A stretch of DNA of 59,761 nt, from contig DASSBJ010000124.1 of NCBI GenBank assembly GCA_035698885.1, forward strand, positions 1 to 59,761, read 5' to 3'. Below the pieces are notes generated by a model. It did no database searches, was not told the DNA's origin, and worked only from the letters and a program-made list of their open reading frames with translations. This DNA comes from Solirubrobacterales bacterium. GTDB lineage: Bacteria > Actinomycetota > Thermoleophilia > Solirubrobacterales > 70-9. The position numbers were made by a program, and so were the translations under genes. This document shows positions 8,116 through 25,047 of the stretch, piece by piece. Numbering within the stretch: the stretch's first letter is position 1; each line of letters starts with the position of its first letter.

Positions 8116-8138
8116 TCGCGCTCCCTCTTGAGTTGACT

Positions 8139-9427: not shown

Positions 9428-9452
9428 TTTTACACATTGATATTGTGTAAAA
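9428..9452. promoter_or_regulatory. Palindromic operator candidate TTTTACACA-N7-TGTGTAAAA in a divergent promoter region
   Basis: Perfect 9-bp arms (9428-9436 and 9444-9452) in an AT-rich island between the oxidoreductase start (9383) and the OsmC start (9492). Confidence 0.6.
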
Positions 9453-9491
9453 CAAGCAGCCACCTTGGGCTGCTGACCGAAAGGAGCAGCG

Positions 9492-9935
9492 ATGGCCATT
9501 GCAACTCGCGCCGCCAAGACCACCTGGTCAGCCGACCTCGCCAGCGGACACGGTGTGGTCCAAGCCGACAGCGGAGGCTTTGACGATCTCGACGTAACTT
9601 GGGCCTCCCGCACCGAGGCTCCCGGCGGCAAGACCAGCCCGGAGGAGCTCTGCGCCGCGGCGCATTCCTCGTGCTTCGCGATGGCGCTCGCGCTCAAGCT
9701 GGGGGAGTCGAAGATGACGCCGCAGGAGCTGCAGGTGAAGGCGACCGTGACCCTTGCCGAGGTGGACGGTCTGCCGACGATCGTCTCCTCGGTGCTCGAT
9801 GTGGGCGGACGGGTCGACGGGCTCGATGCGGCGGGGTTCGAGGCGGTCGTCGCCGAGGCCGCGGCCCTCTGTCCGGTTTCCCGCCTTTTCAGCGGGGCGG
9901 AGGTGACTGTGGACAGTCATCTTCTGGCCGAATGA
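9492..9935 (+). CDS. osmC: OsmC family peroxiredoxin
   Basis: AAGGAG RBS 5 nt upstream of the ATG. GKTSPEELCAAAHSSCFAMAL carries the two conserved Cys regions of OsmC. Confidence 0.85.
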   Translation: MAIATRAAKTTWSADLASGHGVVQADSGGFDDLDVTWASRTEAPGGKTSPEELCAAAHSSCFAMALALKLGESKMTPQELQVKATVTLAEVDGLPTIVSSVLDVGGRVDGLDAAGFEAVVAEAAALCPVSRLFSGAEVTVDSHLLAE

Positions 9936-9946
9936 ATGGCTCTATA

Positions 9947-9971
9947 ATTTATACAAGCTACCTGTGTAAAA
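9947..9971. promoter_or_regulatory. Second-copy operator candidate ATTTATACA-N7-TGTGTAAAA overlapping a TATAAT box
   Basis: The right arm is identical to the 9444-9452 arm and the left arm matches 7/9. TATAAT at 9943-9948. Lies 20 nt upstream of the ferredoxin GTG. Confidence 0.55.
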
Positions 9972-9990
9972 CAATCGAAGGAGGGGCCCT

Positions 9991-10260
9991 GTGGCTTATG
10001 TGATCAACGAGCCCTGCATCGGCACGAAGGACAACTCCTGCGTGGAGGTCTGCCCGGTCGACTGCATCCATCCCACGCCCGAGGAGCCCGACTACGACTC
10101 GGTGGAGATGCTCTACATAGACCCCGACGAGTGCATCGACTGCGACGCTTGCGTCGAGGCCTGCCCGGTGGACGCGATCACGTCCCAGGACATGGTCCCG
10201 CCGGAGTGGCAGAAGTACATCGAGATCAACGCCGCCTACTACCGCAAGGACAATGATTGA
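9991..10260 (+). CDS. 7Fe-type ferredoxin (3Fe-4S plus 4Fe-4S)
   Basis: GAAGGAGG RBS. AYVINEPCIGTKDNSCVEVCPVDCIHP and CIDCDACVEACPVDAI cluster motifs. Confidence 0.9.
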   Translation: MAYVINEPCIGTKDNSCVEVCPVDCIHPTPEEPDYDSVEMLYIDPDECIDCDACVEACPVDAITSQDMVPPEWQKYIEINAAYYRKDND

Positions 10261-10727
10261 TCGCCGCCACCTCAGCACCCCTGATCGCGGTACACGCCCT
10301 CGCCGCATCGATCTGGGTGGGGGGTCTGGTGGCGATCTTCATCGTCGCTCGGGCAGCTTCAAGCACCCTCCAACCCGCCCAGCGAGTTGAGTTCTTCCGC
10401 GCCCTTGGCCGCTCCTACGGGATCGTCGGCACCCTCGCGCTCCTGGTCGCGCTCGCGACTGGCGCGATTCTGCTCGACGGCCATCCCTGGGACGGTCTCA
10501 TGGTCGCGGCCGCCGTTGTCGCCGGCGCCCTCCTGCTCGCCACCGCCGCGGGGATGGCCCAGGCCAGAGGGATGACGCGGTTGCGCCGTCGGGCGGTGGC
10601 TCAGGTCGGAGGTGAGCCGCTCGACCCACTGGTCCGCCGGGGCGCGATCGTCGCCGCGGTCCTGCGCGCCTGCATCGGCGTTCTAACCCTGGCTCTCGTC
10701 GTGCTCGGCGCGGCGTTGGTGAACTAG
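10257..10727 (+). CDS. Integral membrane protein (4 predicted helices)
   Basis: 4-nt overlap with the ferredoxin stop. Hydrophobic helices throughout. Confidence 0.6.
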   Translation: MIAATSAPLIAVHALAASIWVGGLVAIFIVARAASSTLQPAQRVEFFRALGRSYGIVGTLALLVALATGAILLDGHPWDGLMVAAAVVAGALLLATAAGMAQARGMTRLRRRAVAQVGGEPLDPLVRRGAIVAAVLRACIGVLTLALVVLGAALVN

Positions 10728-10734
10728 CCGAACG

Positions 10735-11430
10735 ATGGACCGGCTGCCTTCATCGGATAGGGCTCAGCCGGTCGGGGAGCCTCTCCTGGCAGCCTGGACG
10801 CTGCCGCTGATCGTGGCGGCGATCGCCGTCGTGATCGTCGGCGGCTTCTACCTCGGCGGGCCGGGCCTCGGCATGGCGGCAGGGGCACTCGCCGCTACCT
10901 CGATCGTGGTGATGGCGGTTCGCCACCCGCCGCGAGGACCGATCGTGCCCGCCTCCCTGCGAGATTTTCGCCACCACCTGCTGGTCGTCGTCAGCGGCGC
11001 CCTCGAGGACGAGCGGGCGATTGAGCAGATCGTCGAGGTGGCCGGAATCAGGGACGTTGACCAAGCTGAGGCGGAGGTTGTGGTCCTGGTGGCCGCTCGG
11101 CATCGGTTCCTCGACCGCTGGGCCTCCGATTCGGACCCCGCGCACGATCAGGCCCAGCGCTGTCTTGTGCTGAGCGCCGCCTCGCTGGCCAAGGCGGGCG
11201 TCGCGACCGCCGCGCGGGTGGGTGACGAGGACATGGTCCAGGCCGTAGAGGATGAGCTACGCACCTTTCCCGCCACGGAGGTGGTCCTGGTGACCGGAGC
11301 TCCCGATTGCGACGTCGCCGGCAACGCCGCGGCATCGGAACTGGATTCTCGGCTTCAAGCGGACTTTCATCACCTGATCCTCGATTCACATCGGCCCCCC
11401 GTGGGCGGACCGGAATCGACCATCCGATGA
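10735..11430 (+). CDS. Membrane-anchored protein with USP-like alpha/beta domain
   Basis: Two N-terminal helices, then HLLVVVSGALEDERA...EVVVLVAARH...ARVGDEDMVQAVEDELRTFPATEVVLVTG, resembling a universal-stress-like fold (inference). Confidence 0.6.
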   Translation: MDRLPSSDRAQPVGEPLLAAWTLPLIVAAIAVVIVGGFYLGGPGLGMAAGALAATSIVVMAVRHPPRGPIVPASLRDFRHHLLVVVSGALEDERAIEQIVEVAGIRDVDQAEAEVVVLVAARHRFLDRWASDSDPAHDQAQRCLVLSAASLAKAGVATAARVGDEDMVQAVEDELRTFPATEVVLVTGAPDCDVAGNAAASELDSRLQADFHHLILDSHRPPVGGPESTIR

Positions 11431-11906
11431 ACGACGCCGTTTGCCAGCGGGTCGATGGCTACACCTGGGCGTTCACGGCCGCAGCAGGGGCGATGATCGT
11501 CGTCGGCGGCCTGGTGGCGGCCATCAACAGTGCGGCGCCGTTTGCCCATGGTTCGTGGCTGGCCGCATACTTGGTGTTGGTCGGTGGGGTGGCTCAGCTA
11601 CTCCTGGGCGTGGGGTGTCTGGGACTGCCGGCGCCCAGGCTCTCGGCTCGGCTAAGGCGCACCCAGCTGGGACTGTGGAACGTGGGCAACGCCGCCGTCG
11701 CCAGCGGTGTGCTCGGCGACGTGGTCGGCCTGGTCGTAGCCGGGAGCCTGGTGCTGCTGGGTGCCTTAGTCGGATTTGCGGTCGGCGCCGGCCGCGCTTC
11801 TTCAAACGCGCGCAGCCGCCTGATCCTCTATCGCGTAGCGATCCTCGGTCTGGCCGGCAGCGTTGTCATCGGCAGCGTGCTCGCCAACTCATCGCCCGGG
11901 AACTGA
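11427..11906 (+). CDS. Integral membrane protein
   Basis: ATGA overlap at 11427-11430. Four hydrophobic segments. Confidence 0.6.
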   Translation: MNDAVCQRVDGYTWAFTAAAGAMIVVGGLVAAINSAAPFAHGSWLAAYLVLVGGVAQLLLGVGCLGLPAPRLSARLRRTQLGLWNVGNAAVASGVLGDVVGLVVAGSLVLLGALVGFAVGAGRASSNARSRLILYRVAILGLAGSVVIGSVLANSSPGN

Positions 11907-11931
11907 GCTGAGCGTGGCGTCGCGCCGCGGA

Positions 11932-12195
11932 TCATTCGCGCTCGACCCGTTCTAATTCGGATTCGAGCAGGGCCTTCAAACTGCGGAAGTCCTCCGCGCA
12001 GGCCGGGCAGCCCTCGAGGTGGGCCCGCATCCCCGGCACGTGCCCGTCTGGGTCCGAACCGGCGAGGTTCAGCTCGACATAGCGGTCCAGCTCGGCGAAG
12101 CACTCCTCACAACCGAGCTCGGGTCCAACGGGCCCGAGGAGGCGGGCCAGCACCGCCTCTCGTTTCGGCGCTCCGCTCTTGTCGCGGTCGTTCAT
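11932..12195 (-). CDS. Putative zinc-finger (zf-HC2-like) anti-sigma factor, short form
   Basis: ATGA overlap with the sigma factor stop. CEECF...HLEGCPACAEDF motif. Confidence 0.7.
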   Translation of the reverse strand: MNDRDKSGAPKREAVLARLLGPVGPELGCEECFAELDRYVELNLAGSDPDGHVPGMRAHLEGCPACAEDFRSLKALLESELERVERE

Positions 12196-12875
12196 GACGC
12201 CTCCTCTCGGGTTCCTTCGATCCCAAAGCCACGCTCGGCGAGCGCAGTTCGCAGCCTGCGCCGAGCGTCGTGCAGGGTCTTGTAGAGGGCACCGCGAGTG
12301 GTCTCCAGTCGCTCGGCGAGGACGTCGATCGGAACGTCGTTCAGCGTCACAGCGACGAGTACCTCACGCTGGTGTTCGGAAAGGGCACCCTCGATCTCCT
12401 CGCGCAGCGCCCCGAACAGCTCGGTGTCCTCGACATGGGCGCCCGTGGAGCTGGCGGGGTCGGCCAGCACCGCCCAGGCATCTTCGGCGATCGGGATCTC
12501 GCGTCCCTGCCAGGCGCGGCGCCGAACCTTCACCGACGCCTCGAGCAGGGCGAACTTGTAGGCCCAGGTCGTGAAGCGGGCTTCGCCGCGAAAGTCCCCA
12601 AGCTTCGCCAGCACCGCCAACAGGGCATCGTCGGCGCTCTGCTGTGCGAGGTCCTCCTGATCGTCGCCGCGCAGGTGCGGAAGGGAAGCCCGGCGGCGAT
12701 TGATCTCAAAGCGCGCCGCCTTCAACAGCAGCGCGTGCAGCTCGATAACGGCAGCGTCTCGCCTCGGTCCGCTCGCGCCGAGCCGCTCCAGCCAGAGCCG
12801 CGAGTTGTCCTCGCCCGGCGCGGCAGAATCTCCGGCAGGAGTCTCGATCGGCATCGTCATCGTCGCTGGCGCCAC
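12192..12875 (-). CDS. ECF-type RNA polymerase sigma-70 family factor
   Basis: Region 2-like DLAQQSADDALLAVLAKLGDFRGEARFTTWAYKFAL and region 4-like SEHQREVLVAVTLNDVPIDVLAERLETTRGALYKTLHDARRRLR. Confidence 0.85.
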   Translation of the reverse strand: MAPATMTMPIETPAGDSAAPGEDNSRLWLERLGASGPRRDAAVIELHALLLKAARFEINRRRASLPHLRGDDQEDLAQQSADDALLAVLAKLGDFRGEARFTTWAYKFALLEASVKVRRRAWQGREIPIAEDAWAVLADPASSTGAHVEDTELFGALREEIEGALSEHQREVLVAVTLNDVPIDVLAERLETTRGALYKTLHDARRRLRTALAERGFGIEGTREEAS

Positions 12876-13024
12876 GCATTGTTAGCGACCGGCGCCGTTC
12901 GATCCTTACCTCCTCCTCGCACTGAGGGCCTGAAAGCACGATTTGTCGCCGCGACGGTAAGACTCGGTGACCGGGAGACGCCAAGACAGGGACAGCCAAT
13001 CATCACCAACGTTTGGAGGCCCAC

Positions 13025-13486
13025 ATGTCCAGCACCGCGACTCTCGACCCGCGCGAGGTCGGCCTGACTTCAACGACGTTCGGCGAACGCCTCAAGGGCG
13101 ACCCTGCCTACCAGGCCTTTCTGCTCTTGCGGATCGCCTTCACCGTCGCGCCGATCCTCTTCGGCCTCGACAAGTTTTTCAACATCATGGTCGACTGGGA
13201 GTCTTACTTGGCGCCCTGGATTAACGACATCATTCCCGGCAGCGCGTCAACCGCGATGCACCTGGTGGGCGTGATCGAGATCATCGCCGGCATCGCCGTC
13301 GCCCTGAAGCCCCGCTACGGCGCCTACATCGTCGCGGCCTGGCTCGCCGGGATCGTCATCAACCTGCTGACCTACTCCGGCTATTACGACATCGCCCTGC
13401 GCGACTTCGGCTTGATGCTGGCTGCGCTGACCCTCGCCCGGCTGGCGAGCAAATACGACCCGCCTGGGTTCCAGGTCCGCCTCTGA
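13025..13486 (+). CDS. DoxX-like small membrane protein
   Basis: GGAGG 5 nt upstream of the ATG at 13025. Four helices. VGVIEIIAGIAVAL motif. Confidence 0.7.
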   Translation: MSSTATLDPREVGLTSTTFGERLKGDPAYQAFLLLRIAFTVAPILFGLDKFFNIMVDWESYLAPWINDIIPGSASTAMHLVGVIEIIAGIAVALKPRYGAYIVAAWLAGIVINLLTYSGYYDIALRDFGLMLAALTLARLASKYDPPGFQVRL

Positions 13487-13509
13487 GGCTGCGAACCTAG
13501 ACTGAGGCC

Positions 13510-14469
13510 ATGTCGCTGCTCGAGCGTCTCGGCCTCGAATTACCCGTCGTCCAAGCCGGAATGGGCGGCGGGCTCTCTCGCCACGAGCTGGCGGCGGCGG
13601 TGTCCGAGGCCGGCGGGCTGGGGACGATCGCCGTCAACGGCGCCGCGTCGATCAACCGCGAGCTGGCGGCGGCGCGGATGTTGACCGGCCGGCCCCTCGC
13701 AGTCAACCTCCTGCTGCCGTTCGCGCGGCGCGACTGGTTCGCCGCGGCAGCCAAGGCCGACGTCGTCGTGACGTTCTGGGGTAGGCCGCGGCGAAGGACC
13801 GCCGGGGTCTGGCTTCACCAGTGTGGCTCGGTTGCAGAGGCGCGAGCCGCGCAAGCGGCTGGCGCCGACGCCGTGATCGTCCAGGGCCTCGAGGCCGGCG
13901 GTCATGTGCGCGGCACGCTGCCGGCGCTTGAGTTGCTCGAGCGAGTCAAGACGGCATTGCCGGCCGGCTACCCGGTGTTGGTCGCGGGCGGCATCGCCGA
14001 GCGTGAGGATGTGGTTAAGGCGCTCGAGGCGGGAGCGAGCGCCGCGGTGGCGGGCACCCGTTTTCTGCTCTCCGCCGAGAGCCGTGCCCACCCGGGGTAC
14101 AGGCAGCGATTGCTCGAGGCCCAGGACACGATCCTCACCGAGCTCTTCGGCGCCAGCTGGCCGGCGCCGCACCGGGTCGTGGCCAACGCGGCGACGGAGC
14201 GCTGGCTGGATGGCGACCGGTACGGGCCATTGCTGAATCGGGCCCTAAATCGTCTCCTGGCGCCGGGCGCGCGCTACATGCCATCGGGCCTACAGGCTCG
14301 AATGATCAAAGCCCAGCGCCCGAGTGGGCGGGTGCTGACGCCGGCGCCACCCACCGATGACGGTCCTCCCAACTTGCTCGACGCCGGGGCACTCTACGCG
14401 GGGGAGACGGTGACGCGGATGACCGAGGTCAGGCCGGCGGCCGATCTTCTCCGGGCGCTGGTGCCATGA
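13510..14469 (+). CDS. Nitronate monooxygenase / 2-nitropropane dioxygenase family (FMN-dependent)
   Basis: Motifs LELPVVQAGMGGGLS, AGGLGTI, VIVQGLEAGGH and AGGIA. Confidence 0.85.
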   Translation: MSLLERLGLELPVVQAGMGGGLSRHELAAAVSEAGGLGTIAVNGAASINRELAAARMLTGRPLAVNLLLPFARRDWFAAAAKADVVVTFWGRPRRRTAGVWLHQCGSVAEARAAQAAGADAVIVQGLEAGGHVRGTLPALELLERVKTALPAGYPVLVAGGIAEREDVVKALEAGASAAVAGTRFLLSAESRAHPGYRQRLLEAQDTILTELFGASWPAPHRVVANAATERWLDGDRYGPLLNRALNRLLAPGARYMPSGLQARMIKAQRPSGRVLTPAPPTDDGPPNLLDAGALYAGETVTRMTEVRPAADLLRALVP

Positions 14470-14665
14470 GCGGCTCGCAGTCAGAGCTCGGGCGTTTGGC
14501 GAGGTAGGCCAGCAACTCGGCATCTCGCGAGCGCAGCTGGTCGATGAGCTCACCGTGGCAGGCACACAGGTCGATTACCGCCTTGCCGTCGGCGATCGAC
14601 CTGGTCCGCCAGATCGCACCGTGGTCCTCCCAGCGGCGCAGGGTGAGGAGCGGAGGCTCGGGCAT
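14429..14665 (-). CDS. Hypothetical small protein
   Basis: 78-aa ORF whose tail overlaps the 3' end of the monooxygenase gene by 41 nt. The N-terminal two thirds look protein-like. Confidence 0.35.
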   Translation of the reverse strand: MPEPPLLTLRRWEDHGAIWRTRSIADGKAVIDLCACHGELIDQLRSRDAELLAYLAKRPSSDCEPLMAPAPGEDRPPA

Positions 14666-14886
14666 GGACCGACGATACGCCCAGGCATCCAGGGCGACCG
14701 AGAAGGATCCGCAAACGCTCTTGGAGCACGGTGTACGTAAGGGAGAGTTATCGGGCGGTGGGGGCGAGGGGCGCCGTCTTCGCGCTACCTCGTAGCCGCG
14801 CCCGAGTCAGAGTTGAAGTGCTGCGACAGCTTCTCGGCGCGGTCGCATTCCTCGATCAGGATCCGACCCAGGCCGCTCGACCTAGA

Positions 14887-15597
14887 TCATTGTATGAAGG
14901 GCCCATCCCAAAATTGGCCCTCGAACAGTGCGAGCTGCGCGACTCCGTCCACTGTCACTTCCATGGTCGCGTCGTCGACCAGCCGAGCCGAGCTGCGGCC
15001 CAGCCTCAATCCGCCGCCCAATGCAATGAGTGGTGCCAAGAGCATATGGATCGACAGAAAGCGCAGCATGCCGATCACAGACTCGTTGCGTCGGCGGAGT
15101 GCCAGGCAGAACCGCGTCAAACTCGCCCGTGAAGAGGGTCCGACGACAATGACCAGTCCGTTACGGCCAGCCCGGCACCTCAGTTTCTCCAGAGCCGCCT
15201 GCGGGTCGGGTATTAGGTGAAGGACGTTCGCAGCAACTACCACTCGCGGCTCCGCGCCACCTCCACTCAGTTCCTCAATTGCGGAATCGCAGACGGCAAG
15301 ACCGGGAAGGCGCGCGGCAAGGTAACGTCGCATGCGGGCGTCGGGCTCAAACGCACAAACATTCATCCCCGCCTGGTGAAGGTGCAAGGTGTAAAGGCCG
15401 GAGCCAGCTCCGACGTCGTCAACGGGCAAGCCGGGAGGGATCAGACCGACCACCCGCGCCGCCAAGTGATCGGTTAGCGGGTTGTCCCAGACGCGATCGT
15501 AGAACCTAGGGTATACGCGCCACAGGAGTCGATGGAACGGTCGCGGCTCAATAGATGAACCACTTCCCACCAGCGAGAATATAGAGGCCGTACGCAA
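14887..15597 (-). CDS. Class I SAM-dependent methyltransferase
   Basis: VDDVGAGSGLYTLHL (motif I), CAFEPD and VVVAANVLHL. Confidence 0.8.
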   Translation of the reverse strand: MRTASIFSLVGSGSSIEPRPFHRLLWRVYPRFYDRVWDNPLTDHLAARVVGLIPPGLPVDDVGAGSGLYTLHLHQAGMNVCAFEPDARMRRYLAARLPGLAVCDSAIEELSGGGAEPRVVVAANVLHLIPDPQAALEKLRCRAGRNGLVIVVGPSSRASLTRFCLALRRRNESVIGMLRFLSIHMLLAPLIALGGGLRLGRSSARLVDDATMEVTVDGVAQLALFEGQFWDGPFIQ

Positions 15598-16006
15598 TCG
15601 CGCCGAGGCCGATCAGAGGTGACCCGTGCTGGAAGGCAAGAACTGCGAGACCTCCGCAGAGCACTAGGTACACGCCCCTAACTATGAGCTCCATCGTAAG
15701 ACCCGCGACATCCCAGAACCCACGTGACGACTTCTTCGGGGCGCGACCGCTGCCCGGAACCGGCGCGGTTTCCGCGATGGGCCGATCCTCGCCGAGGCTG
15801 GCGGGACCGAATCCCTGCTCCAGCTCGGCCGCGTAGACGGCGGCACCGGTCGTGCCTTGGACGTCCTCTCCGTGATCAACTGGAAGCGATCCCTCCTTGG
15901 CGGCAGGGGTCGCGTCTACCTCCTGAGGAGCGCCACACGCGCCGCAGAATCGGTCGTCAACCGCCACCGCCACGCCGCAATTCCCACAGAAGGGTCCGTC
16001 AACCAT
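15548..16006 (-). CDS. Zinc-ribbon domain membrane protein
   Basis: N-terminal CGNCG...FCGACG double CxxC, an acidic/Pro linker and two C-terminal helices. ATG at 16006 is preferred to TTG at 16024. Confidence 0.65.
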   Translation of the reverse strand: MVDGPFCGNCGVAVAVDDRFCGACGAPQEVDATPAAKEGSLPVDHGEDVQGTTGAAVYAAELEQGFGPASLGEDRPIAETAPVPGSGRAPKKSSRGFWDVAGLTMELIVRGVYLVLCGGLAVLAFQHGSPLIGLGAIAYGLYILAGGKWFIY

Positions 16007-16119
16007 GCTGACCTGCCATTTCAACTTCCATTCCGAGGCGGCATCCTAGTCGTACCTTGACGCCGCCAAGGGACGCTGCCGTGAGCGAGGATTGGTAGGG
16101 CGGCGCCACGAGTCTTGAC

Positions 16120-17970
16120 CTAGCCGATCGTCTGATCCGCATACTGTTGGCGGCGCAGCTCGACGCGCCGCTGCCACCACTGGCGCACTTGCTGCCACCA
16201 GGTGTCCTCGAAGGACGGCCGCAGGCGAGCCTGTAGGACGACGGCGCAGGCGGCGATCATCAGGAGAAGGGCGATCGCGACCTGCAGCTCGCCGTGGTTG
16301 AAGAAGTTGGAGCTGTAGGGGCTGATTCGTTCATATTCAGAGTTGGAGGCGATACGCGCGTTCATCCCGATCGCGTTGCCGACGCCGGCAAAGCCCCACT
16401 GGGCGGCGATCAAATGTGAAAGCCACTGGATGGGCTGCCCCAGGTCTCTGGTCGTGACGATCGCGCCGGCGAAGAGCAGCTGGGGCAAAAGGATCAAGGG
16501 CAAGAAGCTGGTCGCCTGGTTCTCGCTGCGGGCGAAGGCCGAGAGGGTGAGACCGAAGCCCATCCCGACCCAGCTGATCAGCACGCATATCTGGAGCACA
16601 TGCAACTCGGCGTTTGCCGGGGGGTTGCCGAGCGGGCGCAGAGCGAAGACGATCCAGATAAAGAGGACGGTCTGTAGCGCGGTGACGGCGCCGATCACCA
16701 GCCCCTTGGAGAGCAGGTAGGCCTCGGTTCGCACGCCGGTCGCCAGCTCTCGCGTCAGCACGCTGCGCTCGGCGACGATCTGACGCACTGAGGAGATCGA
16801 GCCAAACCACAGCGCCACGGTCACCATCAAGAAGGCGAGCTGGGCGCTTTGGGCCGCGTGTTCGGCTTCGCCGAATTCGCTGTAGGAGAAGACATCGGAG
16901 TGAAAGAGGAAGGCGGCGCCGAGCCCGAGGATCAGGACCTGTGCGGCGAGGATCGTCGCGTTTCGCCGGTCGCGGAGGAACAGGATCGAGTAGCGGCGCA
17001 CGAGAACCCTCACCTGGGGCATGATCCGCCGCCGGGGGACCTCCCTTGAGGAGGCCAGGCGGGCCGGCGAGATAGATGCCTCGACTCGCTTCGGTGGCTG
17101 CTCGGCTCCCTCGGCCTCATCGGCGAGCTTCGCGTAGACCTCCTCGACCCGCTCCACACCGAATGCCGCTGGCACTCCCTGTGGCGGCCCGATGTAGGCG
17201 AGTCGACCGCCTGACGCCATCACCGCGACGCGGTCGCAGAGATCGAGGCTCTGGGTCGCGTGGGTGACCAGGAGCACTCCCTGCCCGCGGTCGGCGAGCC
17301 TGCGGGTCAGCTCCATCAACCGGCGCTCAAGACCGGGATCCAGGCCGGTCGTCGGCTCGTCGAGCAGCAGCAGCTCGGGGCCGCTGATCAGCTCGAGGGC
17401 CACCGCGGCGCGCTTTCGCTGCCCGCCAGAGAGGTTGCCGATCCGCCGCTCGCGGATGTCTTCGAGGCCCACCTGGTCGAGTACATCGGAGATCGCCGCC
17501 TCGCGCTCCTCGGAAGTGTGGCCTTCGGGCAAGCGCAGCCGGGCGGCGAAGGTCAGCGCCTCCTCGATACTCAGCAGGTGGTGCAGCGTGTCGTCCTGCG
17601 GGACGTAGCCGATGTCAGCCTGGCGCAGGCCGACATCCTCCCCGCGGACCGAGACGGAGCCGGCGCTCGAGGGTCGGATCCCGCCTACCGTCTTCAGCAG
17701 CGTGCTCTTGCCCGACCCACTGGGGCCTACGATCGCGACCAGTTCGCCGGGCTTGAGGGTGAGGTCGGTCGGCTGCAGCAGGGTGGTGGCGCCAACGATG
17801 ACCTCTATTCCCTGTGCTTCGAGCAGGCCACGCTCCGCCAACGGCGCCGCGGCTGGCACCGGGGGCGCTACTAACTCGACATCGGCCTGCACCCCGCCAC
17901 AGTTCTCGCAGAACTTCCAGTCAGGCTGGATTACTGCACCGCAACTGGTGCAAAACGCCCCCGTGCTCAT
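16120..17970 (-). CDS. ABC exporter, fused zinc-ribbon + ATPase + ABC-2 type permease (ABCG-like half transporter)
   Basis: CTSCG...FCENCG ribbon, Walker A GPSGSGKST, signature LSGGQRKR, Walker B LLLLDEPT, then six hydrophobic helices. Confidence 0.88.
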   Translation of the reverse strand: MSTGAFCTSCGAVIQPDWKFCENCGGVQADVELVAPPVPAAAPLAERGLLEAQGIEVIVGATTLLQPTDLTLKPGELVAIVGPSGSGKSTLLKTVGGIRPSSAGSVSVRGEDVGLRQADIGYVPQDDTLHHLLSIEEALTFAARLRLPEGHTSEEREAAISDVLDQVGLEDIRERRIGNLSGGQRKRAAVALELISGPELLLLDEPTTGLDPGLERRLMELTRRLADRGQGVLLVTHATQSLDLCDRVAVMASGGRLAYIGPPQGVPAAFGVERVEEVYAKLADEAEGAEQPPKRVEASISPARLASSREVPRRRIMPQVRVLVRRYSILFLRDRRNATILAAQVLILGLGAAFLFHSDVFSYSEFGEAEHAAQSAQLAFLMVTVALWFGSISSVRQIVAERSVLTRELATGVRTEAYLLSKGLVIGAVTALQTVLFIWIVFALRPLGNPPANAELHVLQICVLISWVGMGFGLTLSAFARSENQATSFLPLILLPQLLFAGAIVTTRDLGQPIQWLSHLIAAQWGFAGVGNAIGMNARIASNSEYERISPYSSNFFNHGELQVAIALLLMIAACAVVLQARLRPSFEDTWWQQVRQWWQRRVELRRQQYADQTIG

Positions 17971-18040
17971 CGCGGGTGTGAGCCTACAGTGACAGCCGGT
18001 ACATGCAGCATCCCGGGGGTGCCGCTAGGCTTGCGGCGTC

Positions 18041-18529
18041 TTGAGCCGGCTGGGGGTAAAAAGCCCGCGCAACTTGGGTGCCCTAGCGCTGCTTCTCGTG
18101 CTGGTGGGCTTGGTCGCCGGCTGCGGAGGCTCCGAACGCAGCCCCGAAGCCTACTGCCGCGCGTTTTACGAAACCGCCGCTCCCATCCGCAAGTCCTACG
18201 TGGAAGCGGGCAATGAAGTCGAAGAGGATCCCCTGCAGTCGATCGTCACCCTGATGGGCTCACCGGGAGACCTGAGCGTGATCTTCGACTCGATGGTCGC
18301 CCACGCCCCCGATGACATCCGCGCCGACACCGAAGCAACCCGCGACGCGATGAAGAAGGAGCAGGAAGCGGTCGGCGAAGGCCTCTCGGACCCGCTCGGC
18401 GCGCTCGGCAAGAGTCTCGGCGCCGGACTCACTTCCTCTGGCTCTTTCCAGCGAGTAAACGACTACTTGGACGAACACTGCCCGGTCAACTCGGAGTTCG
18501 CGCAGAAGATCATCAGCGAATCTGAATGA
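18041..18529 (+). CDS. Lipoprotein, function unknown
   Basis: Signal peptide ending in the lipobox LVAGC. Confidence 0.65.
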   Translation: MSRLGVKSPRNLGALALLLVLVGLVAGCGGSERSPEAYCRAFYETAAPIRKSYVEAGNEVEEDPLQSIVTLMGSPGDLSVIFDSMVAHAPDDIRADTEATRDAMKKEQEAVGEGLSDPLGALGKSLGAGLTSSGSFQRVNDYLDEHCPVNSEFAQKIISESE

Positions 18530-19650
18530 CCGACCTCGACGCACAGCCACCGCAGGGCGAAGAGCGCTCCTGTCAGCAGTGTGGAGAGTCGCTGGCGCCG
18601 AAAGCGGCGTTCTGTCGTTCATGCGGGGCGAAATACGAGCCACCGGCGCCATCAGAGCCCACCGCCGAGGAGCAGAAGACAGAGGTGCGTGACGCAGAGG
18701 CGAGCGTGGAGGAGCCGGTCGAGCCGATCTGTGGCAAATGCGGGGCGAGGCTGGCCGCCAGCAGTGCCTTTTGCCGCGCTTGCGGGACCCCGGTGCCCGG
18801 GGGCGGAGCTCCCACGCAGAAGCTCGACGCGCCACCGTCCGCGGATTCGACACCGACCCAGAAGCTCAGCCCAGCTCCGAGCCCGCCTCCGCCACCGTCA
18901 CGACCACCAGTTTCCCCGCCGCCTCCGAGCCCTCCCCCACCGCCGCCTGTCACGCCAGCGCCGCTCGCTGGGTCGGGAGGCTCGCGGAGCAAGATGCCGA
19001 TCGTCATCGGTGCACTCATCCTCCTGCTCGGCGCCGGGGTGGCGGTCGCGATCGTGGCGAGCAAGAGCTCGAACGCGAGCCACCCGACCGCCCTTTTTGA
19101 ACGGGCTGGGGCAGAAGGGGCCGAAGAAGAAGAACCGGGCGGCGAAATGGTCGAAACCGAAGAAGAAGCGGTGGAAGAACCCGTGGAAGGCGGGGAAGAA
19201 GTGAGCTCCGCCGGCTTCCCCGAAGTCTCGCGCTCGCGGATGAATGAAGAAATCACCTCGCTGTTGCAGGGCTACCACGAAGACGTGGTGGAAGAAGACT
19301 TCCAGGGCGCGTGGGCCATGCTCTCCCCGCGCAAGCGCCGCCAGTACCTGCGGGAATACGGTTACCAAAAGTGGGCCTCCGCTCAGGCAAGCCTCTCCCC
19401 CTACCTGGACCCATACGGACTGGAAGCCAACGTGGTCTCCCTCGAAGGCGAAGGGGTCGCGCGCGTCGACGTCACGGGCATGGGCTGGAGCAAGGCGGGG
19501 GCGCCGTGCTCGGAATGGTCGGGCCTCACCTGGGCCAAGTACGAAGGCGACGAATGGGCCTATGACCCCGGCTACTCCACGACGTCGGCGCGGCGGGCCA
19601 CCTGGCGGCCGCGCAGCGCGCGCCTCCTCGGCGGCGACTGCGCCGAATGA
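18526..19650 (+). CDS. Double zinc-ribbon, proline-rich, single-pass membrane protein
   Basis: ATGA overlap. CQQCG...FCRSCG and CGKCG...FCRACG ribbons, a PSPPPPPSRPPVSPPPPSPPPPPP tract, one helix, an acidic tract and a C-terminal globular part. Confidence 0.7.
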   Translation: MTDLDAQPPQGEERSCQQCGESLAPKAAFCRSCGAKYEPPAPSEPTAEEQKTEVRDAEASVEEPVEPICGKCGARLAASSAFCRACGTPVPGGGAPTQKLDAPPSADSTPTQKLSPAPSPPPPPSRPPVSPPPPSPPPPPPVTPAPLAGSGGSRSKMPIVIGALILLLGAGVAVAIVASKSSNASHPTALFERAGAEGAEEEEPGGEMVETEEEAVEEPVEGGEEVSSAGFPEVSRSRMNEEITSLLQGYHEDVVEEDFQGAWAMLSPRKRRQYLREYGYQKWASAQASLSPYLDPYGLEANVVSLEGEGVARVDVTGMGWSKAGAPCSEWSGLTWAKYEGDEWAYDPGYSTTSARRATWRPRSARLLGGDCAE

Positions 19651-20690
19651 GATCCGGACGCAGGCGCGGCGCCACCGCGCTGTTGGTGCTGGTCGTGATC
19701 GCGGCCGTCGCGGGCTACCTCTACGGCTCCACTCGTGGGGGCTCTTCGCAGGCCCCGTCCTCGCAGGCTCCGGTCAAGGCGCACCCCCAGGCCTCCTCGC
19801 GCGAAGCGGCACAGCGCGCTCATCTGGGCGCCGAGCTCCAGCACGGTGTAGACGCGGCGGCCGCCCTCGGCGGCACCGCTGAGGCGGCGATCATGCTCGA
19901 CGGCTGGCCGACGCCGCTCATCGTCAGCTCAGAGGCCGACGGGGAAGGCCGGTTCATGCGCATGTGGAGCATGAGCAAGGTCTCGACGATGATCGCGGTC
20001 CTGCACGGCCTCGGCTGGGGGCGCCGACCCGGACGGCCGATCTCACCCGAGCTCGACGAGGCCCTGCACGGTGCGATCACGCGCTCGGAGAACTGCCGCC
20101 AACGGCGCGTCGTGCTCGAACTACAGCGCCTCTCCGGCGGTACCGCCGCCGCCAGGAGGGCCCTCCAAGATGTCTTCCGCGAGGCTGGCGCGGAAGTCAG
20201 AGTCGGGATCCAGATCGCCCCGCCAGAAGAAAACTGCCTCGCATACCTCGAAACCCAGACCGAATTAGCCGAACCATTGGCGCCGGCGCTGCTGTTGGGC
20301 ACCTCGACCTGGCGGGCCGGTGACGCGGTGCGCCTGGTCCACGCGCTCTCGATCGGCACCTACGGTGCCGCGATCTCACGTGAGGTCTTGGGACTGATGC
20401 GCCTGCCCAAGCAGCCGAGTCGCGAGGTGGATCCGGGTGAACTCACCGCCCCGCTGGATTGGGGCGCCGGAGAATCCCTGCCGAGCGGAACCCCCTATAA
20501 GTCCGGGTGGGGCGGCAGCCTCAACGGCAACTTCCTCGCCGGCCAGATCGCCCTCGCTGAGCTGCCCGGCATCGGTCGGGCGGCGCTTGTCGGCGTCTTC
20601 CATCCTGACCGCCAGCCCTCACGCGACGATCCGGGGATCACCGAGGCCCCCCAAGCACTCGACGCGATCTTCTCCTCGCTCGGTCGATAG
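19647..20690 (+). CDS. Membrane-anchored serine hydrolase, class A beta-lactamase/PBP-like fold
   Basis: ATGA overlap. N-terminal helix, SMSK (SxxK) and YKSGWGG (K-S/T-G) motifs. Confidence 0.7.
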   Translation: MRSGRRRGATALLVLVVIAAVAGYLYGSTRGGSSQAPSSQAPVKAHPQASSREAAQRAHLGAELQHGVDAAAALGGTAEAAIMLDGWPTPLIVSSEADGEGRFMRMWSMSKVSTMIAVLHGLGWGRRPGRPISPELDEALHGAITRSENCRQRRVVLELQRLSGGTAAARRALQDVFREAGAEVRVGIQIAPPEENCLAYLETQTELAEPLAPALLLGTSTWRAGDAVRLVHALSIGTYGAAISREVLGLMRLPKQPSREVDPGELTAPLDWGAGESLPSGTPYKSGWGGSLNGNFLAGQIALAELPGIGRAALVGVFHPDRQPSRDDPGITEAPQALDAIFSSLGR

Positions 20691-20738
20691 GGAGTCCATC
20701 CCAGCTTCTGCTGGGCGATCGCCCTTCGGGCTGGGTGG

Positions 20739-21152
20739 CTAGCCCCGCTCTTCGATGAACAACGGGGACGTCGAATAGGTCGCGGGTTCGCCCTCGTTGC
20801 AGAAGCGGTGCTGTTCGTCGCCAATGAACAGGCAGCTCCATTCCGAGGACGCTTCGCCGTTGAGGATTCGTTCACTTGCACTCAACGCTTCTGCGCAGCT
20901 CATCGAGGGAACCGCCCTGACGACGAACTTGCCCTTTACCATGCCGCAGTTGCGAGGCGTGTTTGGGTCCACTTCACCTTCGTCGATAGGCACTTCTCCT
21001 TGTTGGGCCTGGCTTTCAGACGGCAGCTGAGTCCCGCTCGATTGAGAGCCCGACTGCGTGCTGTCGGAAGTCCCTGACCCGCACCCGGCCAACCCCAGCG
21101 CGACGAGGATCACGAGCGGTAATGTGCGGCGCAGGTTCCAAGGGGGTCCCAT
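20739..21152 (-). CDS. Lipoprotein, function unknown
   Basis: Signal peptide with the lipobox LAGC. Cys-containing mature domain. Confidence 0.65.
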   Translation of the reverse strand: MGPPWNLRRTLPLVILVALGLAGCGSGTSDSTQSGSQSSGTQLPSESQAQQGEVPIDEGEVDPNTPRNCGMVKGKFVVRAVPSMSCAEALSASERILNGEASSEWSCLFIGDEQHRFCNEGEPATYSTSPLFIEERG

Positions 21153-21242
21153 CTAAGTCGAGGCAGTCTAAGGAACTACGGGTCGGCCAGCATCTGGATT
21201 TACGGCCTTCAGCAGCGAAGAGCGAATAGGGTTCTAGAATCC

Positions 21243-22001
21243 ATGGGCGGGGAGAGCACTGTGTACTGCGGTTCCTGCGGAGGGGCGCTGTCAGACAGCG
21301 CTCGGTTCTGCCGCTCCTGCGGCGCCTCCCAGGAGGCATTCACGGCAGAGCAGCCACACCAACCGCCAGCGCCGGCCCCTCCTGCGTCCGCTCCGCCGTT
21401 GCCGAGCCCACAGCCGCGCCAGCCCGCGCCGCCGACCCAACCACCTGCGCTCACGCCGAGCCCCGGTGCCTGGCCTCAGGCAAACGCCAATGGCTACCAG
21501 AGCGCGACCGGCTACCGCGCCGCCGCCTATCTGGCAATCGCGGGCGGCATCGGGATGTGTTTCATGGTGCTCTACGCGATCCTCTATGTGCCGTTGCACC
21601 ACCACTTTCCCCTCGCCTTCGGTGAATCGCTTCAGTTCGGCGACCTGCTGGCCTTCGGCGGCGGCGCCCTGGCGGTGGTGATCGGGGTGCTAGCGCTGCG
21701 ACGTGCGCCGGCGAACCCGGGCGCAACCGGCGCTGTCCTGATCCTCGCCGGCCTGGCGTCCGTGATCCTGGTCGCGGTCTGGGCCTTCCCTGAAACGCTC
21801 CACCTCGACTACTTCTTCGAGCGCCCGTTCTATTTCGGCTTCGTCTACTTCTGCGAATTGGGCAAGGCACACATCGGCGACAGCTACGAGAATGGCTACA
21901 TCCAGGTCCCTCTGCTGGTCAGCTCCGCGGCGGTGTTCCTCGCGGGTTGCCTGATGGCCTTCGCCCGTGGCAACCGCCCGAGCGCGCGCACCTGGCAATG
22001 A
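21243..22001 (+). CDS. Zinc-ribbon, proline-rich polytopic membrane protein
   Basis: CGSCG...FCRSCG ribbon, a Pro/Ala/Gln-rich linker and about five helices. Confidence 0.7.
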   Translation: MGGESTVYCGSCGGALSDSARFCRSCGASQEAFTAEQPHQPPAPAPPASAPPLPSPQPRQPAPPTQPPALTPSPGAWPQANANGYQSATGYRAAAYLAIAGGIGMCFMVLYAILYVPLHHHFPLAFGESLQFGDLLAFGGGALAVVIGVLALRRAPANPGATGAVLILAGLASVILVAVWAFPETLHLDYFFERPFYFGFVYFCELGKAHIGDSYENGYIQVPLLVSSAAVFLAGCLMAFARGNRPSARTWQ

Positions 22002-22153
22002 GCGAGGATGCGACCGTCGGCCCCGCCGCGTCAGCAGGGGATGGGCGAGTCTGTCAGCGGTGTGGGCACTCGCTGTCGGGGGGCGCTGACTTCTGCCGCA
22101 GCTGCGGCGCTCGATCTCGATCCTGTCGTCCTCCCCGTCGAGCGAGCGCTTGA
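21998..22153 (+). CDS. Possible 51-aa zinc-ribbon peptide (uncertain 3' end)
   Basis: ATGA overlap. CQRCG...FCRSCG. Codon third-position G+C drops after the ribbon, while the opposite strand looks coding. See findings. Confidence 0.3.
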   Translation: MSEDATVGPAASAGDGRVCQRCGHSLSGGADFCRSCGARSRSCRPPRRASA

Positions 22154-22306: not shown

Positions 22307-22332
22307 CGGTTGATTGACGAGTCAGTCAACCG
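22307..22332. promoter_or_regulatory. Imperfect 12-bp-arm palindrome CGGTTGATTGAC-GA-GTCAGTCAACCG
   Basis: 11 of 12 arm positions pair. Lies ~20 nt upstream of the hydrolase ORF start (22351). Confidence 0.45.
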
Positions 22333-22365
22333 GGATATCCTCACCTGCCGATGGAGCTTTTCTGC

Positions 22366-23113
22366 ATGAGCAAAGGCAGCGGTCCGCCTATCGTCCTGCT
22401 CCACGGGACCGGCGGAAGCTGGGAATCCTGGGGGTCTGTGATCGGGCTTTTGGCACCTCACAGGCGCGTCGCCCTCGTTGCCGGACAAAACGCCTCCTGC
22501 TATCCGCACGCTGGCCGACGCCGTTGCGGCGTGGATGGCGGCAAGCGGATTGGAGCGCCCCCATGTGGCGGGCAACTCCCTCGGCGGAGCGGTCGCACTG
22601 GAGCTGGCCAAGGGAGCGCAGATCGCCAGTGCGACGGCGCTTTCGCCAATCGGTTTCAGCAATCGTTGGGAATTCGCCTACGGCGCCGCGTCGCTGAGGG
22701 CTACTCGCGCCGGGGCACGCCTGACGGGGCCAATCGCGCCGCTGCTTTTCGGCAATCGGCTCGGCCGCACGGCACTACTTTGGCAGGCGATGGCTCGGCC
22801 GTGGCGCATGTCGGGTGAGGCAGCGATCAGCGGCTCACGCGCGATGGCCGCAGCACCGGCTTTCATGGCGACGGTCAAGGCGGCAAGCGAGTACCGATTC
22901 GCCGGCCCGCTCGGCGATGTCACTGTGACGATCGGGTGGGGAACGCGGGATCGTCTGCTGTTCTGGCGCCAGGCAAAGCGGGCGCAAGAGACTCTGCCCG
23001 AGGCTAGCTTTGTGCCTCTCCCCGGTTGCGGGCATGTCCCGATGACCGACGATCCAGAGCTGATCGCCGCTGTTCTGCTGAATGGCAGCGAAACCGCGAG
23101 GGGTGCGGCTTGA
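22366..23113 (+). pseudogene. Alpha/beta hydrolase, reading frame broken near 22468-22485
   Basis: The N-terminal GPPIVLLHGTGGSWESW...HRRV is in one frame. DKTPPAIRTLADAV...HVAGNSLGGAVALELA...GCGHVPM is in the +1 frame. The usual DLPGxGxS stretch between them is missing. Confidence 0.65.
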
Positions 23114-23147: not shown

Positions 23148-23376
23148 ATGTTCTACAGCCGCTTGATCGACGTCCTGCTCGAATGGCTTGAGACCGGCCG
23201 CTTTCCCCGCGAGGAACTGCGCGTGCGACCTGTCATTACGGTGGCCTTCACCGTCGTAATTCTCGTCTTGGTGATTGCCCTGGCCCGTCATGCCTCCGCC
23301 TCCCAGCGGTGAGATCACCTCCGAGGAGTACCGCGAGCGCCGCGAGACGCTGACCGATCGCCAGCCGGATCAGTAG
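23148..23376 (+). pseudogene. Small membrane protein with SHOCT-like tail, split by a 1-nt frame change at ~23307-23312
   Basis: A 54-codon ORF with one helix ends at TGA 23310-23312. The +1 frame continues GEITSEEYRERRETLTDRQPDQ (SHOCT-like), ending at 23376. Confidence 0.45.
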
Positions 23377-23738
23377 GTAAAGGCCATCGCCCCCTCGCCG
23401 GCGAACTCCATCAGCGGCGTCGCTCCCTTGAGTTCGGCGCTCTCGATCAGGTCGCCCTCGTCGAGGTCGCGCTCGTTGAAGCAGATCGGGCAAACGTAGA
23501 AGCGGCCGCCTTTCTCGACGAACTGCGCATGCACCCGCTCCACCGGCGGTTCCATGCCGACGCGGATGCGATCCGCGTAGCCCGACAGCGCCAGGCGAAC
23601 GCCGTCGACCGTCAGCCACATCACCACGTCCTTGCCCTGGTCGAGGGCGGCAACTGCCGTCAGGTAGGCGACGACGACCCGATCGGGGTCCTCCTCGCCG
23701 TGCGTGCAGCCGACTATCACTCGCTCTCCGTTTGCCAT
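23370..23738 (-). CDS. DsrE/DsrF-like sulfur-relay family protein
   Basis: GGAGGAG lies 6 nt upstream of the ATG at 23738. VIVGCTHGEEDPDRV and FYVCPICFNERDL motifs. Confidence 0.75.
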   Translation of the reverse strand: MANGERVIVGCTHGEEDPDRVVVAYLTAVAALDQGKDVVMWLTVDGVRLALSGYADRIRVGMEPPVERVHAQFVEKGGRFYVCPICFNERDLDEGDLIESAELKGATPLMEFAGEGAMAFTY

Positions 23739-23767
23739 CGACATCTCCTCCCGGTTCGTTTTTGTGT

Positions 23768-24262
23768 TCAGAGGGGCCTCGGCTCGCCACCGCGGCGTCC
23801 GTGCAGGAGGCCGTAGATCAACGAGGGCAGGCACCAGTTCGTAGTCATGACCGTCGCCGCCACCACCAGCAGGGGGACGGCGAGCACCCAGGCGAGCGCC
23901 GAGGCGTCCACCGCAAAGGCAAGGGCGATCGCCGCGATCCATGGCGTCGCCAGCTGACAGGCGAAGCGGCGGGGCGGTGGGCTTGGCGGCAGGCTCGGGC
24001 CGCCCAGCAACGGTCGCAACGCGTCGTAGAGATAGTCGAAGGGATGCTTCGCGGTGACGAACCCGCCGAGCAGGGCGGTGAGGGCCATCGCCAACAGCAA
24101 AGCCGGGCTGGCGAGCACGGTGCCGAGCGCGATTCCGGCGAAGCAGAGAAGGGGCGAGAAGCGCAGGCCGAGCCAGAGGCTCCTTCGCTCCGAGTCGCTG
24201 AGGGCGCCGTACCCCTGCATGGTGAGGCAGCTCCGCGACCAGGCTCCGAGGCGCTCGATCAT
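23768..24262 (-). CDS. DUF4395-like membrane protein
   Basis: ATGA overlap with the methyltransferase stop. Four helices. The RRFACQL motif matches my recollection of DUF4395. Confidence 0.65.
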   Translation of the reverse strand: MIERLGAWSRSCLTMQGYGALSDSERRSLWLGLRFSPLLCFAGIALGTVLASPALLLAMALTALLGGFVTAKHPFDYLYDALRPLLGGPSLPPSPPPRRFACQLATPWIAAIALAFAVDASALAWVLAVPLLVVAATVMTTNWCLPSLIYGLLHGRRGGEPRPL

Positions 24263-25047
24263 CCCGATCCCTCCTCCGTGCGGCGAGCCAGCAAGGAGAT
24301 GCTGGTGACGCCGTATTTCTGCGTGGCGTTGTCGGCGCGATCGGAGACGAAGCGGTAGTCGTTCTCGCGGACCTCGCCGATCTCGAAGCCGGCGCGCTCG
24401 ATCGTCTCCAGGTAGCGGTCGCGCTGCATCGCGCCGCCGATGCATGCAGCCCACAGCGAGGCGTCGCAGGTGACGCCCTCGGGCAAGGGCTTGGCGCTGA
24501 CGATGTCGGCGATCGCCAGTCGACCACCGGGCCGCAGCGCCGCCGCGGCGGCGGCGAAGACCGCGGCCTTGTCGGGCGAGAGGTTGATAACGCCGTTGGA
24601 GATCACGCAGTCGACCGAGCCTGCCTTGACGGGCGGCTTCTCGATCATGCCCCGGCGGAACTCTGCGTTGCCGATCCCCGCCTCCTCCGCGAGGCGCGTC
24701 GCCTTGGCGAGCTGCTCGTCGGTCATGTCGACGCCGATCACCCGCCCCGCCTGCCCGGCGGCGAGCGCCGCGAGTAGCGAGTCGGTGCCCGAGCCGCTGC
24801 CAAGGTCGAGCACGACGTCGCCCGCCTCGATCGCCGCCAGGTCGAGGAAGTAGCCGACCCCGGCGAAGGAGTCGATCGCCGCGGCGGGGATGCGATCGAG
24901 CTCGGCCGGCGGGTAGCCGAGGTGCTCGGCGAGCGGGCGACCCGTCTCGAAGTGGAACTCGCGCTCGGGATGGAGCGCGACCTCCTCATACATGTCCTTG
25001 ACCCGCTTGGTCAGATCGGCGGTGTCTAGCTGCGCGGTCGTTGCCAT
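24259..25047 (-). CDS. ArsM-like SAM-dependent methyltransferase lacking two canonical As(III)-binding cysteines
   Basis: VLDLGSGSGTD (motif I), VDCVISNGVINLSPDK and LWAACIGGA. ArsM normally has GCG and SNCVINL at the aligned places. Confidence 0.85.
   Translation of the reverse strand: MATTAQLDTADLTKRVKDMYEEVALHPEREFHFETGRPLAEHLGYPPAELDRIPAAAIDSFAGVGYFLDLAAIEAGDVVLDLGSGSGTDSLLAALAAGQAGRVIGVDMTDEQLAKATRLAEEAGIGNAEFRRGMIEKPPVKAGSVDCVISNGVINLSPDKAAVFAAAAAALRPGGRLAIADIVSAKPLPEGVTCDASLWAACIGGAMQRDRYLETIERAGFEIGEVRENDYRFVSDRADNATQKYGVTSISLLARRTEEGSG

Follow-up and report, generated by a model that had tools for sequence, protein, structure and literature searches.

We analysed a 59,761-nucleotide stretch of Solirubrobacterales DNA (contig DASSBJ010000124.1; hereafter the window) in which the envelope genes of a 6.6-kb segment repeatedly encode the same short four-cysteine zinc ribbon. 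The evidence points to a conserved envelope module of Solirubrobacterales (Thermoleophilia), arranged around an Rv1747-type ABC-2 exporter, in which the ribbons would act as modular cytoplasmic docking heads, a reading that we hold with slightly better than even confidence. Judging from comparison of homologous proteins, several components of this one module appear to have gained the same ribbon independently, in slots that elsewhere are used for interaction or signalling domains.

A six-frame regular-expression scan of all 59,761 bases found exactly six CxxCG-x8-FCxxCG motifs, confined to five open reading frames (ORFs) between 15.5 and 22.2 kb (6.6 kb), and zero in the remaining 53 kb of the window. 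Two of them are in minus-strand ORFs, at 15932-15988 (g1) and 17896-17952 (the ABC gene), and four in plus-strand ORFs, at 18571-18627 and 18730-18786 (ribbons 1 and 2 of g4), 21267-21323 (g7) and 22052-22108 (g8). An initial annotation of this DNA had reported five ribbon-bearing proteins within 6.6 kb, and both ORFs and motifs were recovered where it had placed them; it had allowed six to ten residues between the two halves of the ribbon, and while all five proteins do carry the same ribbon, the spacing is eight residues in all six copies. The Pfam family Zn_Ribbon_1 (PF13240) matches all five proteins, four of them at or above its gathering score of 25 bits (g1 25.6, ABC 25.7, g4 41.9 and g8 27.2 bits, with g7 at 22.3 bits), and DZR is also assigned to g4. 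In an AlphaFold2 (AF2) model the g4 ribbons form short strands with a predicted local distance difference test (pLDDT) score of 82-90, and the four-cysteine ribbons are predicted to bind zinc. They share with Zn_Ribbon_1 and DZR (PF12773) two CxxC knuckles within about 23 residues and the FCxxCG signature; these are generic families with no assigned function, and what is new here is the concentration of the ribbon on 5-12 different proteins of one locus.

Apart from the ribbon of about 25 residues these proteins have nothing in common, and their transmembrane (TM) domains display no mutual homology at BLAST level. The ribbons are not recent copies at the DNA level, because the sequences coding for them are only 39-63% identical to one another in nucleotides; recent duplication or gene conversion of ribbon-coding DNA was ruled out on this basis. 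The closest pair consists of g4 ribbon 1 and the g8 ribbon, which are 60% identical in amino acids and 63% in nucleotides, and both extend C-terminally as FCRxCGA(K/R)YE-P, an extension kept in orthologues that hints at ribbon subtypes.

The region comprises eight ORFs, g1, ABC, g3, g4, g5, g6, g7 and g8. The operon g3-g4-g5-g7-g8, with ATGA start/stop overlaps, is divergent from the ABC gene, and g6 lies on the opposite strand; a promoter and terminator scan of the cluster gave matches at or below shuffle expectation. The ABC homologues come from Solirubrobacterales metagenome-assembled genomes, and a locus 98% identical to that of the window (L003) is found on contig JBLMYD010000066, labelled Chloroflexota. 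The N-terminal ABC ribbon occurs in every one of the 20 loci in which identity of the ABC protein reaches 69% or more, with 1-11 additional ribbons per locus. The 13 independent orthologous loci that have complete flanks contain 80 ribbons, 74 of them in the interval from -7 to +1 kb around the ABC gene start; 30 loci around more distant FHA-type ABC paralogues, in all 517 kb, contain only 6 ribbons. With these 6 motifs per 517 kb of related genomes as the background rate, the Poisson probability of at least six motifs in 6.6 kb is about 3e-10.

Gene order is also conserved, as the initial annotation had proposed to check. Running away from the ABC gene, tblastn places the g3 lipoprotein, the g4 ribbon-TM-NTF2 protein, the g5 beta-lactamase-like protein, the g7 ribbon-multipass protein, a ribbon-TM-SPOR protein and the convergent gene h9, and in some loci a 2TM-DUF2510 protein with a C-terminal ribbon stands between g5 and g7. 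Instead of ribbon-bearing genes scattered through the sequence at similar density without synteny, we thus found a syntenic cluster in which the ribbons are concentrated. The h9 gene, encoding a protein with four TM helices and a C-terminal ribbon, is present in every complete orthologous locus and missing from the window. In the h12 and h9 proteins the ribbon is placed C-terminally, after two or four TM helices, and h10 (288 aa) and h11 (445 aa) are soluble ribbon proteins of the cluster; the h10 family is found both with and without a C-terminal ribbon. Ten related loci have a Ser/Thr kinase bordering the ribbon cluster; no Pkinase match was found in the window. The limits first drawn for the cluster, 15548-22153, enclose the core of the module, and the window holds only part of the system: h9, the kinase (10 loci) and an E1-E2-RING-Ubl-JAB operon (4-5 loci; Ubl, ubiquitin-like protein) are absent from it.

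The ribbon-ABC gene (16120-17970, minus strand) encodes 616 aa, with the ribbon at residues 6-25 followed by a nucleotide-binding domain (NBD) and an ABC-2 permease (Pfam ABC_tran at residues 65-208, ABC2_membrane at residues 319-530, six predicted TM helices). Its best NCBIfam match is TIGR00955 (ABCG/White type), and the NBD matches ABCA and ABCG proteins in the PDB. We classify it as a putative exporter, an Rv1747-type/ABCG-like half-transporter, in line with the ABCG-like exporter of the initial annotation. Rv1747 has been tied to the export of cell-wall glycolipids, and its FHA module gives phosphorylation-dependent regulation and clustering (PMC7761784, PMC8339232). The two transporters are alike in being half-transporters with the NBD preceding the ABC-2 permease and a cytoplasmic regulatory module at the N-terminus. 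Unlike the Rv1747/PknF pair, the window protein has a zinc ribbon and a linker of about 20 aa only, no FHA domain and no kinase nearby, and a phospho-threonine logic cannot apply to the ribbon itself. Among ABC orthologues at 68-79% identity, P0021, P0041, P0056 and P0060 display a ribbon-FHA-NBD-TMD arrangement (TMD, transmembrane domain) with the ribbon and one FHA domain, and a Baekduia paralogue, P0074, is FHA-FHA-NBD-TMD, its second FHA domain matching FHA-2 of Rv1747 (PDB 6cah). A Ser/Thr protein kinase gene adjoins the FHA-type ABC paralogues in about 23 of 33 loci, mirroring the kinase-adjacent arrangement of pknF-Rv1747.

The g4 gene (18526-19650, plus strand) encodes a 374-aa protein with two ribbons, a Pro-rich linker, one TM helix, an acidic linker and an extracytoplasmic domain of 140 aa (residues ~232-372) that carries two conserved cysteines, which bears out its first description as a double-ribbon, Pro-rich, single-pass protein. 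The C-terminal domain is modelled by AF2 with pLDDT above 90, and its Foldseek matches are NTF2-like: SgcJ, the sensor NTF2 domain of RsgI9 and the N-domain of PBP2a. Homologues of this NTF2 domain have various cytoplasmic heads, namely one or two ribbons, Prok-RING_1, Pkinase, RDD or a YukD-like Ubl. The architecture of two N-terminal ribbons, a TM segment and an NTF2-like domain is that of Bacillus subtilis YdjG (SamG), with which g4 was compared through the published description only (PMC11237479). YdjI, the second protein of the pspA-ydjGHI (samGHI) operon, has a C-terminal zinc finger; YdjG and YdjI belong to one interacting membrane complex, and when ydjG/H is lost, peptidoglycan synthesis becomes mislocalised under stress. 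In contrast to that operon, the genes that accompany g4 here encode an ABC exporter and a beta-lactamase-like protein, and no PspA, SPFH or Band-7 match was found among the cluster ORFs scanned.

The g5 gene (19647-20690, plus strand) encodes a 347-aa protein with an N-terminal TM anchor for which no Pfam, NCBIfam or PDB match was obtained by sequence, and its class is thus assigned only via structure prediction. According to the AF2 model (pLDDT 90.6), g5 has a class-A beta-lactamase/penicillin-binding protein (PBP)-like serine-hydrolase fold, with PER-2 and CTX-M as top Foldseek matches (probability 1.0, E 4e-11). The residues S108xxK111, S147EN149 and K285xG287 are invariant in 41 homologue sequences. 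This model, together with the invariant SxxK, SxN and KxG motifs, upholds the membrane anchor and the beta-lactamase fold that the initial annotation had reported. All 274 g5 homologues are annotated as hypothetical, and a single one, P0184, has a precomputed match to PF13354 (Beta-lactamase2).

The last gene of the operon, g8, had been taken for a 51-aa peptide. The ORF (21998-22153, plus strand; 68 aa from an alternative start at 21947) contains the ribbon only, and its ATG overlaps the g7 stop codon as ATGA. For 56 codons it is identical to the L003 gene, whose 341-aa product goes on to include a TM helix and a SPOR domain (PF05036, 28.9 bits for L003:5053-6078 and 25.1 bits for L008:8438-9322, gathering score 21). 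We consider g8 a truncated gene because blastn collinearity with L003, L005, L006 and L002 stops at 22114/22115, the L003 gene continues, and no SPOR-coding sequence was found anywhere in the window; on this comparison g8 is not a peptide gene but apparently what is left of the 5' end of a ribbon-TM-SPOR gene, which breaks off at about 22115, before the TM helix. The breakpoint at 22115-22116 would be either a rearrangement or an assembly junction. Full-length g8 orthologues are built like SPOR proteins of the FtsN/DedD/DamX type, with a single TM helix between a short head in the cytoplasm and a linker that leads to the SPOR domain; they differ in that the head is a zinc ribbon and in an additional Cys-containing C-terminal domain, and the window gene differs further in being cut before its TM helix. 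A passage of PMC6895207 describes SPOR domains as binding denuded septal glycans.

Window positions 14859-22115 and L003 positions 5910-13115 form the sole block shared by the two contigs (7.26 kb), with dissimilar sequence on both flanks. The right break falls inside g8 just past the ribbon, and the left one about 28 bp past the stop codon of a methyltransferase gene (14887-15597); the block could represent either a mosaic, recombined island or a chimeric assembly.

Two further ribbon proteins and two lipoproteins complete the set. The g7 gene (21243-22001, plus strand) encodes 252 aa, comprising the ribbon, a Pro-rich linker and 4-5 TM helices, and has orthologues 34-98% identical in 13 loci; its TM domain, matched by only about 16 cluster representatives among 1.84 billion proteins, appears to be a tiny lineage-restricted family. 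Directly downstream of the ABC gene, g1 (15548-16024, minus strand) encodes 158 aa with the ribbon, a disordered linker of about 60 aa and a C-terminal two-helix hairpin. Its orthologue was found only in the 98%-identical locus L003, with few synonymous or nonsynonymous differences, and its GC content at third codon positions (0.70) is the weakest coding signal of the set. The two lipoproteins of the initial annotation are supported by their lipoboxes, VAGC in g3 and LAGC in g6, and neither has a family in Pfam, NCBIfam or PDB searches. The conserved 162-aa g3 (18041-18529, plus strand), first gene of the divergent operon, is 62-99% identical in 9 loci, and a 51%-identical homologue adjoins the FHA-FHA-ABC gene in Baekduia (L022). 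The small 137-aa g6 (20739-21152, minus strand), inserted opposite to the operon, was detected only in L003 (97%) and L006 (45%) and would be a lineage-specific accessory gene.

In the window, four complete proteins and one truncated gene bear ribbons, for the most part tethered by long, flexible, Pro-rich linkers. The initial annotation had put them on the cytoplasmic side of unrelated membrane proteins, and the comparison agrees: the ABC ribbon precedes the NBD, the g4 and g8-orthologue ribbons precede a single TM helix that leads to a disulfide-bearing NTF2 domain or a SPOR ectodomain, and the h12 and h9 ribbons come after the TM helices. We propose that the outer face of the module would present the beta-lactamase/PBP-like protein, the NTF2-like domain and the lipoproteins, plus, in intact loci, the SPOR protein as a binder of septal peptidoglycan. 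On the inner face, the ribbon heads would bind a shared cytoplasmic partner, one another or the Pro-rich linkers, and such binding would lead to co-assembly or co-regulation of the exporter and the wall-acting proteins, a role equivalent to that of the FHA domains of Rv1747-type transporters. That homologues have FHA, RING, kinase or Ubl domains in the ribbon slots suggests a regulatory or docking role, and the ribbon is probably a shared docking handle. The wall-related parts, namely the beta-lactamase/PBP-like fold, the NTF2 domain resembling the PBP2a N-terminus, the SPOR domain of the full-length orthologue, the GH3 glycosidase of sister loci (L008) and a ribbon-SurA_N-cyclophilin protein (L005), suggest a septal or cell-wall role, which favours the cell-wall module envisaged at the outset.

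There are precedents for ribbons working in this manner. The ribbon of Myxococcus GltJ binds its own linker and MglB, and that of Caulobacter ZitP binds PopZ (PMC11135422); TcaA, likewise bitopic and wall-related, has a zinc finger inside the cell. As in the proteins described here, GltJ and ZitP have an N-terminal four-Cys ribbon and a flexible linker on a bitopic membrane protein, and in them the ribbon is a docking switch. The differences are that MglA/B, AglZ and PopZ are not expected in Thermoleophilia, that no GYF domain is present here, and that the head occurs on many proteins instead of one.

Several observations weigh against the docking-head proposal. The window encodes no candidate partner (no kinase, FHA, E1/E2/Ubl or JAB), and Zn_Ribbon_1 is a very common generic domain, under whose cutoff g7 falls even though its cysteine motif is complete. 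The six ribbon peptides are 32-60% identical pairwise and the ABC ribbon has a conserved DW motif of its own, therefore the partners could differ between ribbons. Furthermore, because some ABC orthologues have both domains, the ribbon does not strictly take over the function of the FHA domain.

A different reading, which we judge unlikely, draws on a ubiquitin-like system: the ribbons would be membrane-side receptors or adaptors for Ubl or E2 proteins, as eukaryotic NZF-type fingers are, or simplified descendants of Prok-RING_1, and Ubl tagging would control the envelope proteins. In L008, L010, L019 and L050, and in a fragment (L021), the ribbon-ABC gene opens a compact array of genes on one strand, encoding a Prok-RING_1-TM protein, a membrane GH3 glycosidase, a UQ_con E2, a TM-FHA protein, an 86-aa YukD-like Ubl, a ThiF E1 and a JAB protein. 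The RING, E2, Ubl, E1 and JAB members make up a complete, eukaryote-like ubiquitin set, and in L008 these genes occupy 11993-17929 (plus strand), directly downstream of the ribbon-ABC orthologue. The TM-FHA protein and h9 show no homology at BLAST level. The same gene set surrounds the FHA-FHA-ABC gene of L022 and L028, where homologues of g3, g4, g5 and h10 also occur, the L022 h10 being without a ribbon. Of three RING-TM-NTF2 proteins encoded in L022 (Baekduia), one shares 49% identity with the g4 ectodomain, and the first CxxC and the VCxxCG of the RING align with g4 ribbon 2 (alignment A2). RING/E1/E2/JAB operons were predicted earlier by Burroughs, Iyer & Aravind 2011, to which a passage of PMC10557695 refers (its reference 12), and the sister loci resemble prokaryotic E1-E2-RING-Ubl-JAB operons in having this set beside the same ABC, NTF2, beta-lactamase-like and lipoprotein families. 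The window departs from them in lacking conjugation enzymes, and its NTF2 protein has ribbons, not a RING.

The distribution of these genes speaks against that reading: E1, E2, Ubl, JAB and Prok-RING_1 were found nowhere in the 59.7-kb window, and at least nine other ribbon-cluster loci have no E1, E2, Ubl or JAB within the sequence examined at each locus (none in L001-L006, L013 or L015-L017). Where both are found, ribbon and RING proteins coexist with no mutual replacement, and a column alignment of a 25-aa motif is no evidence of homology. If the ubiquitin-linked reading were true, a ubiquitin-like and phospho-threonine network would control wall enzymes and an envelope exporter from the cytoplasmic face, and a Ubl/E2-docking tag would be the first general function for the abundant Zn_Ribbon_1.

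Two other explanations, redox sensing and a role in topology or stability alone, are weaker. Four-cysteine zinc sites are redox switches in other proteins (Hsp33, RsrA), and with an identical motif on several proteins of one module, the ribbons could be thiol/zinc redox or metal sensors in which oxidation or zinc loss unfolds the CxxC...CxxC unit and switches several envelope proteins together. We regard this as quite improbable: no redox-related genes are conserved in the cluster, and the same slots are filled elsewhere by interaction or signalling domains, not by sensors. No better are the prospects of the ribbons being partnerless caps, fast-folding units that fix an N-in/C-in topology or stabilise membrane proteins and that spread in the lineage by domain accretion. 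Zn_Ribbon_1 is indeed found very widely at the ends of bacterial membrane proteins that are otherwise unrelated, and many matches in the g7 search cover the ribbon and linker alone; however, the soluble proteins h10 and h11 also carry ribbons, the ABC ribbon precedes an NBD that is cytoplasmic anyway, a topology cap needs no long Pro-rich tether, and background membrane proteins in related genomes seldom have ribbons.

Public gene calls bear on whether the ribbons are made at all. The call for the ABC gene (P0001, 579 aa) begins at residue 38 and that for g4 (P0250, 219 aa) at Met156, so that both exclude the ribbons, and the 616-aa ABC sequence has no exact database record because the public call is the shorter P0001. 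Several database homologues are shortened likewise, with loss of the ribbon. These downstream starts make the ribbon pattern invisible in annotations and therefore leave ribbon prevalence under-annotated. That such automated starts are right, the cysteine motifs being chance features of untranslated 5' leaders, has a negligible probability, and chance and non-translation are effectively excluded by the in-frame motif in all 20 of those ABC orthologues (to 69% identity) and in the g4, g7 and g8 families, the confident AF2 ribbons of g4, the ATGA overlaps that agree with the long ORFs, and the Poisson estimate.

The zone directly downstream of the ABC gene varies between genomes. In L005 a gene of this zone (12998-14884, minus strand) encodes 628 aa, in which the ribbon stands at the N-terminus and is followed by a TM helix, a SurA_N-like domain and a cyclophilin peptidyl-prolyl isomerase domain; the product is a predicted extracytoplasmic foldase with the same cytoplasmic tag. 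Defence-type genes are found there in some genomes, namely a NACHT and Mrr_cat protein in L002 (12989-16114, minus strand) and GmrSD_N in L083 (4692-6566, minus strand). PADLOC defence models gave only generic P-loop matches on the ABC NBD and nothing for the other eight proteins, and a defence-island interpretation was dropped since no specific match was obtained. L002 also has a mycofactocin cluster (19498-21827, plus strand; MftA, MftB, the radical S-adenosylmethionine protein MftC and a flavin mononucleotide dehydrogenase) about 8 kb from the ribbon-ABC gene.

Elsewhere the window carries genes of ordinary metabolism, including cytochrome oxidase, cobalamin synthesis, transporters and methyltransferases. 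A near-perfect palindrome, GGTTGATTGACGAGTCAGTCAACC (22308-22331), overlaps a promoter-like site just upstream of an alpha/beta-hydrolase gene (22351-23113), which is split across two frames (22351-22818 and 22478-23113), suggesting a frameshift or a pseudogene. Two long minus-strand ORFs, 23370-24527 and 23768-24454, overlap out of frame with each other. The DsrE match of the former is confined to its final ~110 residues and the latter matches DUF4395; probably the actual genes are a short one of DsrE type and, after it, the DUF4395 gene. A FecCD-type ABC import permease (36382-37713, minus strand), adjoining two periplasmic binding proteins and cobalamin genes, has an N-terminal Cys_rich_CWC domain (PF14375, residues 23-67), another Cys-rich cytoplasmic prefix on a transporter that is unrelated to the ribbon motif.

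Each of the domain families described here is already known; the concentration of ribbons at one locus and the exchange of heads appear to be new. In the literature we found no ribbon-SPOR protein, no ribbon-cluster system, no case of many envelope proteins in one locus with Zn_Ribbon_1, and no account of exchange from FHA or RING heads to ribbons. To our knowledge, ribbons cap very many bacterial membrane proteins, with a partner known only in isolated cases (GltJ, ZitP). The locus constitutes a natural experiment, in which unrelated components of a module have the same ribbon and their homologues in sister lineages have FHA, RING, kinase or Ubl heads. It makes the ribbon as an interchangeable cytoplasmic docking tag a testable hypothesis and supplies a defined set of baits. 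Through it an Rv1747-type exporter, of a kind important in Mycobacterium tuberculosis, is connected with wall-binding proteins and also, in related genomes, with a complete bacterial ubiquitin-like system. The host organisms are uncultured, and the locus still gives a defined handle on the role of these common ribbons.

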